From the sequence record PV654517: a DNA stretch of 64,000 nt; one strand, given 5' to 3'. The notes under the pieces are model-generated. The model was not told where the DNA came from. It did no database searches and saw only the letters and a list, made by a program, of their open reading frames with translations. This document shows, piece after piece, positions 2,276 through 3,189 of the stretch. The DNA is from Escherichia phage vB_ECOLIGBLB0003. The position numbers were made by a program, and so were the translations under genes. Each line of letters starts with the position of its first letter. The stretch's first letter is position 1.

Positions 2276-2461
2276 TTATTTACCAATTAAAGTTTCAATA
2301 TAAGAATCAAGATTTACTTTAGCTTCTTCCATAAGAGTTTTGTATTTAATCTTGTTAGCATGTCCGGAGAAAGCTGATTCATCAATAATTGTTGATGTAT
2401 GAACAGCTTTACTATACGTCTCAATTAATTCTCTTAATTTAAAAGCCTGCTCACTTGTCAT
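2276..2461 (-). CDS. small helical protein, member of a tandem paralog family
   Basis: 61-aa ORF with ATG; motif LIETYSKAV...KLxxxIE shared with neighbouring small ORFs. Confidence 0.45.
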   Translation of the reverse strand: MTSEQAFKLRELIETYSKAVHTSTIIDESAFSGHANKIKYKTLMEEAKVNLDSYIETLIGK

Positions 2462-2589
2462 TACATACTCCTTTGAATAATATCAATAATGTTGTTCACC
2501 AGATTATAAGTAAACATTGGGTAATTATATTGAATCATCACATACACAACAAACAAAACTTTCATTCTCTTCTCCTTGACAGTTGACAA

Positions 2590-2623
2590 GATTACTATAC
2601 CATAACCTTGCCAACTTGTAAAC
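2590..2623 (-). promoter_or_regulatory. T4-type early promoter (GTTTAC -35, TGGTATAGT extended -10 on minus strand)
   Basis: Reverse complement reads GTTTACAAGTTGGCAAGGTTATGGTATAGT; same architecture as other early promoters in this window. Confidence 0.4.
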
Positions 2624-2625
2624 CG

Positions 2626-2799
2626 TTAAATGTTGTTTTCAATAAAATTTTGAAGCTTTGTGTGAGCATCAACCATGATTTTCATTTCTTCTTTGGCGAA
2701 AGCTGTGCCTCTTTCACGAGAAGAACATTCATAGTCAGAAACTGCATTAGCATATTCTTCAATTAGTTTCATTAAAAACATCTGCTTTTCAGTTTTCAT
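2626..2799 (-). CDS. small helical protein (57 aa), paralog of 2276..2461
   Basis: Below the 60-aa ORF-track cutoff; ATG preceded by GGTGGA; LIEEYANAV...KLQNFIE aligns with LIETYSKAV...NLDSYIE of the neighbour. Confidence 0.4.
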   Translation of the reverse strand: MKTEKQMFLMKLIEEYANAVSDYECSSRERGTAFAKEEMKIMVDAHTKLQNFIENNI

Positions 2800-2983
2800 T
2801 ATTCCACCTAATCATTTCAAGATATTGAACTAACTTAGCTTTGGATTTATCCAAATCCTTTTTAGCTGCTTCTATACCGTCGTATGAATATCCTTCACAA
2901 TGCTCAACTGCTAATTGATATGAATCTATTTCAATATCACGTGCTAATTTAATGATTTTTTCAAACTGTTCGCGTGTTAGCAT
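2789..2983 (-). CDS. small helical protein, same tandem family
   Basis: 64-aa ORF with ATG; EQFEKIIKL and YQLAVEH...KLVQYLE motifs. Confidence 0.45.
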   Translation of the reverse strand: MLTREQFEKIIKLARDIEIDSYQLAVEHCEGYSYDGIEAAKKDLDKSKAKLVQYLEMIRWNNEN

Positions 2984-2985
2984 AA

Positions 2986-3189
2986 TTAAACTCTCGTATT
3001 ATGATCGATAATTTCATCAAGAAACATATCTAACGCTTCTAAAGCATTATCAACTTTAGCTTCAAGTTCATCAGCACCTTTATTTGCAATGCCTGACGAA
3101 AACCAAGCAAAGTCACTAAGTTCCTCGTCTGCCTTGCGAATTGAAGCCACTAATTCCTTGATTTTATCCGCTTGCTCTACACTAATCAT
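2986..3189 (-). CDS. small helical protein, same tandem family (start uncertain)
   Basis: ORF 2986..3225; internal ATG at 3189 ([14 protein letters not shown]) overlaps the upstream stop and fits the family N-terminus. Confidence 0.4.
   Translation of the reverse strand: MISVEQADKIKELVASIRKADEELSDFAWFSSGIANKGADELEAKVDNALEALDMFLDEIIDHNTRV

Follow-up and report, generated by a model that had tools for sequence, protein, structure and literature searches.

Five paralogues of the phage protein family DUF7438 in the mobD–tk region of a Tequatrovirus genome

The window, the 64,000-nucleotide (nt) stretch of DNA analysed here (record PV654517, Escherichia phage vB_ECOLIGBLB0003), comes from a Tequatrovirus, or T4-like phage, and includes the nrdC.11–mobD–rI–tk–vs region, in which the genes all lie on the minus strand. 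A preliminary description, made from the sequence alone, had reported a tandem array of at least four small open reading frames (ORFs) encoding paralogous helical proteins, and a fifth ORF with a related N-terminus at 5008–5193. All five exist on the minus strand as claimed, and we regard it as almost certain that they are genuine, translated and expressed paralogues of a phage-specific family, Pfam PF24219 (DUF7438). We refer to them as copies A to E:

2276..2461, minus strand: copy A, 61 amino acids (aa), DUF7438, phrog_4859
2626..2799, minus strand: copy B, 57 aa, intact mobD.2a, phrog_2758, below the cut-off of the earlier ORF list
2789..2983, minus strand: copy C, 64 aa, mobD.3, 97% identity to T4 MobD.3
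2986..3189, minus strand: copy D, 67 aa, mobD.4, long-loop allele
5008..5193, minus strand: copy E, 61 aa, directly upstream of tk, tk.2-type allele

Each of the five ORFs gave a full-length match to the PF24219 model (57 positions, of which 1–57 were covered, or 1–56 for copy B), above the gathering cut-off of 25 bits. The scores were 57.8 bits for A (E 1.4e-15), 55.9 for B (E 5.5e-15), 64.1 for C (E 1.5e-17), 54.1 for D (E 2.1e-14) and 69.6 for E (E 2.9e-19). Their lengths, 57–67 aa, are those of the family, which consists of single-domain proteins of about 55–67 residues from tailed phages, mainly T4-like ones. PHROG profiles assigned C, D and E to phrog_653 (E 3e-21 to 1e-26), B to phrog_2758 (E 9e-36) and A to phrog_4859 (E 8e-39), with weaker cross-matches among these three groups. 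Similarly, a local hidden Markov model (HMM) built from 120 database homologues, when run against the 1190 ORFs of 25 aa or more in the window, picked out exactly these five at E ≤ 3e-19, the next best ORF being at E 0.67. No further ORF in the 64-kb window matched DUF7438. The Pfam matches, the PHROG cross-matches and the exclusive result of the local HMM confirm that the ORFs are paralogous. The related N-terminus noted for 5008–5193 is real, although it understates the case, as copy E is a full-length member by both Pfam and HMM.

The five paralogues share only 23–36% identity among themselves. In Smith–Waterman comparisons (1000 shuffles per pair), six of the ten family pairs had z-scores of 3.0–6.2 and four were not significant, while comparisons with the neighbouring small ORFs (mobD.5, the neighbour of the tk.2-type gene at 5190–5363, rI.1 and mobD.2) all gave z ≤ 2.4. 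Pairwise alignment alone is thus insufficient for this family, and profile methods are needed. The proposed comparison with shuffled controls therefore bears out six pairs and not the other four, and the profile evidence is decisive. The four neighbouring ORFs were rejected as family members by Pfam, the shuffle z-scores and the HMM. Alignment of the family with mobD.5 by hhalign gave a probability of 0.3%, and with a MobD.1-like protein 1%; look-alike ‘T-K-D-E-A...YL’ segments are therefore no evidence of relationship.

The N-terminal motif described earlier is found throughout the family, as T/S-x-E(90%)-Q(84%)-x-x-K(71%)-[IL](100%)-x-x-L(97%). The central pattern stands in part: ‘Y-x-x-AV’ occurs in some copies only, whereas the C-terminal L-x-x-[YF]-[LIV]-[EN]-x-[LI] is family-wide. 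Three points were absent from the preliminary description, namely the cataloguing of the family as DUF7438 in Pfam, the annotation of mobD.2a in relatives and the presence of mobD.2 inside the array. The family, its T4 members and the data on their expression and dispensability are already catalogued or public, so the observation is correct but ordinary. Its discovery value is small, given that the family is in Pfam and PHROGs and that annotation of the T4 members dates back to the sequencing of that genome.

Each copy is predicted to encode an antiparallel two-helix hairpin of 57–67 residues. Two of the five were modelled with AlphaFold2 from family alignments. Copy E was predicted with helices at residues 5–32 and 37–60 (predicted local distance difference test score, pLDDT, 92.5), and copy B with helices at 4–29 and 32–56 (pLDDT 95.5). 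Copy A aligns over its full length with both. Column statistics over 31 diverse members showed a conserved hydrophobic core, with Ile or Leu filling about six positions in helix 1 and five in helix 2. Besides this core, the N-terminal T/S-x-E-Q, which has the form of a helix N-cap (a capping box), a basic residue three positions further on (K10) and a Gly in the loop are conserved, and there is no conserved His, Cys or catalytic-looking residue. The hairpin loop is hypervariable in both length and sequence. Parts of helix 1 have two hydrophobic positions per turn (columns 19, 22, 23 and 26), a pattern that is compatible with a helical bundle but does not prove one. The 31 members are acidic (median isoelectric point 4.4, median net charge −7); within the window, D and E are strongly so (−9 and −10), and A to C have net charges of −1 to −3.

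Searches for a characterised relative of this fold gave little. A sequence search of the PDB returned nothing below E 0.025, and Foldseek found no PDB match for the models of B and E at E ≤ 1e-3; the top shapes were the HK853 DHp domain (E 0.2), ING4, a ROP variant and Aqs1. The only matches in BFVD were uncharacterised proteins of 53–61 aa from T4-like phages.

The array also contains, or is flanked by, features that define how its genes are likely to be expressed:

2461..2565, minus strand: mobD.2, a 34-aa hydrophobic ORF between A and B; no match to the family HMM, hence not DUF7438
2594..2622, minus strand: promoter-like site of early sigma-70 type, TTTACA-17-TATAGT preceded by TG, 10 of 12 matches; between B and mobD.2
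3189..3377, minus strand: mobD.5, 62 aa, phrog_3024; first gene of a putative mobD.5-D-C-B unit; not DUF7438
3406..3434, minus strand: promoter-like site of early type, TTTACT-17-TACTAT preceded by TGG, read from the sequence; upstream of mobD.5
3451..3468, minus strand: intrinsic-terminator-like hairpin, AGTCTCCTTCGGGAGACT then TTTTTCATTT; after rI.-1, where it would close the upstream unit

Four of the copies thus sit in two successive units, each starting at an early-type promoter-like site: first promoter-mobD.5-D-C-B, then promoter-mobD.2-A. The site at 3406..3434 corresponds to the T4 mobD.5 promoter demonstrated by primer extension (PMC1702504). It scores below the threshold of our promoter scan (9 of 12 matches), but its 13-nt −35 region is common to the site at 2594–2622 (repeat D5). 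The latter, identified by its match to the consensus only, is followed by AAGGAG and the ATG of mobD.2. Promoter-like sites were not enriched in the region as a whole (17 found, against 17.4 expected from shuffled sequence), and the assignment of the two sites therefore rests on their position, on the T4 experiment and on the shared −35 region. A promoter between copies, as previously proposed, is thus found at 2622..2594 on the minus strand, where it would serve mobD.2, a gene that had not been listed. At the upstream end, a terminator is annotated in phage OE5505 at the place equivalent to 3451..3468.

The genes of both putative units are tightly packed. TAATG overlaps link mobD.5 to D and mobD.2 to A, C and B overlap by 11 nt, D and C are separated by 2 nt, and each gene of the array is preceded by a Shine–Dalgarno-like sequence. 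For copy A this is AAGGAG, 7 nt upstream of a start that overlaps the mobD.2 stop; for copy D it is GGTGGA, the start being the ATG at 3189, which overlaps the mobD.5 stop, and not the GTG at 3225. Homologues of 67 aa exist for this form of D (e.g. P0003). A 26-nt direct repeat (positions 2783–2808 and 3173–3198, 81% identity, 390 nt apart), both halves of which contain GGTGGAATAATGA, spans the ribosome-binding site and the start of mobD.2a and of mobD.4. It may have been left by a duplication that took in the upstream junction, or it may serve unequal recombination as a substrate. The product of mobD.2, which is annotated in RB27, RB3 and T4, is strongly hydrophobic (MKVLFVVYVMIQYNYPMFTYNLVNNIIDIIQRSM) and is probably a small membrane protein; the gene has a strong AAGGAG Shine–Dalgarno sequence directly after the early promoter-like site.

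Data on the T4 counterparts support expression of the family. In time-resolved transcriptomics the T4 RNAs of these genes are all of the early class, and in proteomics MobD.3 and MobD.4 belong to the early class, Tk.1 and Tk.2 to the middle class (PMC9697503 supplements 4 and 6). The truncated MobD.2a and the mobD.2 protein were undetected by T4 proteomics (PMC9697503 supplements). The genes are dispensable under laboratory conditions: knock-down of mobD.2a, mobD.3, mobD.4, tk.1 and tk.2 by CRISPRi-ART had no fitness effect on laboratory E. coli, each gene being classed as ‘Not Fit’ (PMC11879866 supplement 15), and nrdC.11–mobD.3 is one of the large segments missing from genome-reduced T4 mutants (PMC9825161). 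The main texts of the HIDEN-SEQ and CRISPRi-ART studies do not mention these genes, and the literature, searched by DUF7438, PF24219, phrog_653, gene name and UniProt accession, yielded neither a functional study nor interaction data.

The gene order of the window is that of RB27 and T4, on the minus strand: nrdC.11, the MobD.1-like genes, mobD.2, mobD.2a, mobD.3, mobD.4 and mobD.5, followed by rI.-1, rI, rI.1, tk, tk.x, vs and vs.1. T4 MobD.2a, MobD.3, MobD.4, Tk.1 and Tk.2 belong to the same family as the window copies and lie in the same order. Family members differ in number, with four intact copies and a remnant in T4, six in RB27 and five in the window. The window differs from T4 in several ways. 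Copy A is additional; it has no counterpart at the T4, T2 or ECO07P2 loci and occurs in 192 phage records, and the tk.2-type copy E is matched by 741. Copy B, the 57-aa ORF annotated as mobD.2a in RB27 and RB3, is intact, whereas T4 mobD.2a is a 38-aa frameshift product whose C-terminal half can be read in another frame. One use of the comparison is that it shows the reference T4 gene to be a frameshifted remnant of an intact 57-aa gene. The remnant lies at positions 5994–6178 of the NC_000866 locus, which correspond to window 2626–2799. Copy D has 67 aa, against 60 aa for T4 MobD.4, to which it is 72% identical (global alignment, over the longer sequence), with indels in the loop. Lastly, copy E occupies the position of T4 tk.1 and yet is of the tk.2 type, with 54% identity to T4 Tk.2, 31% to T4 Tk.1 and 90% to the ‘Tk.2’ of JS10. 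T4 Tk.1 and Tk.2 are both family members, while the window has this single tk.2-type gene and lacks tk.1.

The family extends beyond these close relatives, mainly within T4-like phages. A word-indexed search gave 122 clusters (90% identity), every one from T4-like phages or T4-like contigs in bacterial assemblies. When 1.84 billion representatives were searched exhaustively with HMMER, no more than 37 clusters reached E ≤ 1e-3, nearly all of them 53–67 aa long. Two long HMMER matches (P0122, 1702 aa, and P0130, 936 aa), with 10–14 matching stretches each, were set aside as probable coiled-coil or low-complexity sequence. The distant members form subfamilies that resemble A, C, D, tk.2 or tk.1, each member having 43–67% identity to one paralogue and at most about 34% to the others. 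Since distant members sort by paralogue in this way, the duplications predate the Tequatrovirus radiation. In a divergent T4-like contig of 173 kb, two copies stand in tandem immediately upstream of tk, while the mobD region has none. An N4-like contig and one other phage contig each have a single copy within an array of early genes.

Among Tequatrovirus genomes, each copy appears to be under purifying selection, with ratios of non-synonymous to synonymous polymorphism (pN/pS) of 0.09–0.38. The values, pooled over seven loci from pairs that are not phylogenetically independent and hence indicative only, were 0.09 for B, 0.21 for C, 0.20 for D and 0.38 for A, the last from few substitutions. 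In copy B, 36 of 50 differences fall at third codon positions. The neighbouring mobD.2, conserved in seven relatives, gave 0.13, with 18 of 23 differences at third positions.

Gene content and alleles, in contrast, change quickly. The mobD.3 of Yersinia phage PYPS2T is frameshifted, and in-frame indels in the mobD.4 loop give proteins of 60, 63 or 67 aa in close relatives. The proteins of rI.-1, rI, rI.1, tk, vs and vs.1 are 98–100% identical to those of T4, compared with 72% for D and 54% for E. At the boundary between tk (99% identity to T4) and copy E, homology to T4 and RB27 ends at the tk start (4998) and resumes in diverged form at 5017, which makes this a mosaic junction. Thus, the copies derive from old duplications, and single copies have been lost, frameshifted or swapped for diverged alleles among closely related phages. 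The earlier phrase ‘rapidly evolving’ is apt for gene content and alleles but not for the paralogues themselves, which are old and individually constrained; ‘phage accessory module’ is an appropriate description of true paralogues within a plastic, non-essential early region of a T4-like genome. Nearby, tk.4 (5747–6226, minus strand), a macro-domain protein labelled ‘phosphatase’, has 56% identity to T4 Tk.4, while the adjoining vs and vs.1 are 100% identical.

What might these proteins do? The explanation that best accounts for the observations as a whole, which we advance tentatively as falling a little short of an even chance, is that they are old DUF7438 paralogues acting as small binding accessory factors. 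As only the core, the N-cap and the open end of the hairpin are conserved, the loop is hypervariable and catalytic residues are absent, stoichiometric binding would be the most likely mode of action. The proteins would probably act as stoichiometric small protein-binding modules, putatively as dimeric four-helix bundles. They may bind host or host-defence proteins early in infection. Separate paralogues would deal with different or varying targets, and the dispensability of each one on laboratory E. coli would follow from this. This more specific proposal, that they are binders or inhibitors for host takeover or anti-defence, draws on the early expression of the genes, on a fold that is small and stable, on a charge that is mostly acidic, on conservation confined to fold-determining residues, on the variable loop, on redundancy, and on the gain and loss of copies and exchange of alleles; we consider it plausible but somewhat doubtful. 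Multi-copy, early, well-folded and mostly acidic hairpins are in any case reasonable candidates for host-takeover and anti-defence screens.

Known two-helix proteins offer models for such a mechanism. Aqs1 is an early protein that forms a dimer and binds and blocks host regulators, the kind of mechanism proposed here for DUF7438. This quorum-sensing anti-activator of phage DMS3 (PDB 6v7u_B) is a helical hairpin of about 57 residues whose template modelling (TM) score against the copy B model is 0.73 in either direction. The likeness is a functional analogy only, as there is no sequence relationship (12% identity), the Foldseek match is not significant (E 1.5), and host and phage group differ. 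ROP/Rom-type and histidine-kinase DHp hairpins have the same antiparallel two-helix form, of about 55–60 residues, and dimerise to four-helix bundles, but the matches to the ROP variant and the HK853 DHp domain were not significant (E 0.2–3) and DUF7438 has no RNA-binding or kinase context. We rejected a DHp domain: there is no conserved His column (at best 8 of 31 members), the proteins end after helix 2, and the Foldseek E-value was 0.2.

Several observations weigh against a role as binding factors. For no DUF7438 member has a partner, phenotype or structure been described, the PDB fold matches were all non-significant (best E 0.2–0.6), and a helical hairpin is a generic shape. Searches of NCBIfam and PADLOC gave nothing meaningful. 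Across Tequatrovirus, copy C is 97% identical and the intact orthologues of B are about 95% identical, which is atypical of an inhibitor engaged in an arms race, and the pN/pS values pool pairwise comparisons that are not independent.

The best-surviving alternative, though an unlikely one, is that the proteins serve the phage's own machinery and not host targets, as small adaptors or regulators of early phage processes such as the enzymes of nucleotide-precursor supply encoded in the tk and nrdC region, or the timing of early expression. Immediately upstream of tk there is a family member in T4 and in the window, and there are two tandem copies in the divergent T4-like contig; Tk.1 and Tk.2 accumulate in the middle class together with Tk. 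This adjacency may, however, merely reflect conserved gene order in the Straboviridae, and the members in non-T4 contigs have no tk nearby. Strong purifying selection on several copies speaks for this reading, but knock-down of any copy caused no fitness defect, and near-identical phages differ in whether they have copy A and tk.1.

That same variation in presence, with the dispensability of all copies, the frameshifts in T4 mobD.2a and PYPS2T mobD.3, and the break in T4 and RB27 homology at the tk/E junction, could be read as the mark of largely neutral passengers: short ORFs duplicated and shuffled by recombination near the traffic of homing endonucleases (mobD), and slowly decaying. We consider this decidedly improbable in view of the pN/pS values of 0.09–0.38 and the strong third-position bias. 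Proteins of the family are moreover detected in T4, both predicted folds are of high confidence, and subfamilies are kept at 43–67% identity across other phages.

An elaboration of the binding-factor reading, for which we see little probability, would have the co-transcribed and translationally coupled paralogues assemble combinatorially as hetero-dimeric four-helix bundles, and so provide an exchangeable repertoire of inhibitors. On this view the conserved open end would serve to grip the bundle or a shared partner, with the hypervariable loop ends offering a range of surfaces. T4-like phages would then have a small set of exchangeable inhibitors aimed at host immunity proteins that vary, and could adjust their host range by gaining or losing copies or by swapping alleles.

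Product labels in RefSeq and PHROG suggest quite different functions. On relatives, copy A is called a ‘helicase loader’, and mobD.3 and mobD.4 are each called ‘molybdopterin-guanine dinucleotide biosynthesis protein MobD’. The gene for copy A is elsewhere labelled ‘kilA anti-repressor’, ‘cell wall hydrolase’ or ‘putative 7.2 kDa protein’. Neither Pfam nor NCBIfam gave a domain match in favour of the helicase-loader, molybdopterin, anti-repressor or hydrolase names. We tried both leading labels and rejected them. Copy A (61 aa) has no match in Pfam or NCBIfam to T4 gp59-type or DnaC/AAA+-type helicase loaders, even at E ≤ 1, and mobD.3 and mobD.4 have no match to a MobA or MobB domain in either database. 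The ‘MobD’ label arose because the T4 gene-name prefix, which refers to a neighbouring homing endonuclease, was confused with the bacterial mob genes. Judged by sequence and predicted fold, the functions named in these labels are already refuted: neither domain is found even at E ≤ 1, the proteins are predicted two-helix hairpins of 57–67 aa, and a single gene carries mutually inconsistent names. The present analysis is of use in correcting the ‘helicase loader’ and ‘MobD molybdopterin...’ names that are spreading through T4-like records. Other unsupported names in relatives include ‘virion structural protein’ and, for rI.-1, ‘starvation-inducible transcriptional regulator’. Finally, chance similarity among short, helix-forming, low-complexity ORFs, some of them not genes, has in its favour the four of ten pairwise comparisons no better than shuffled controls, but is already refuted by profile E-values of 1e-14 to 1e-19 for all five, the clean gap to other window ORFs and substitution patterns of coding type.

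Downstream of the array, two adjoining genes (1204–1725 and 1732–2274, both minus strand) are tandem paralogues with 28% identity to each other (E 2e-8). Both products contain the Pfam domains T4_y05I_N and T4_y05I_C, the ‘putative transcription factor’ domains of MobD.1 type. In T4 there is only one mobD.1, and its identities to this pair are 47% and 25%. The interval between nrdC.11 and mobD.1 that holds mobD, the gene of an HNH homing endonuclease, in T4 is occupied in the window by a different ORF (740–1201, minus strand), which encodes 153 aa with hydrophobic segments and has no Pfam match. The window is thus without mobD itself.

The whole window is 96–100% identical to Tequatrovirus genomes, and the 1.3 kb around the array matches one deposited phage record at 100% identity and hundreds of Tequatrovirus genomes at 96–98%. 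The sole record with 100% identity is PV654520.1, ‘Pseudomonas phage vB_PSGBLB0006’ (142 kb), for which the host is listed as P. aeruginosa. Its sequence is that of a typical Escherichia/Shigella Tequatrovirus, and so the name or host assignment of this record looks doubtful. Further along the window, eight clustered tRNA genes (15068–16447, minus strand) are as expected in a T4-like phage.

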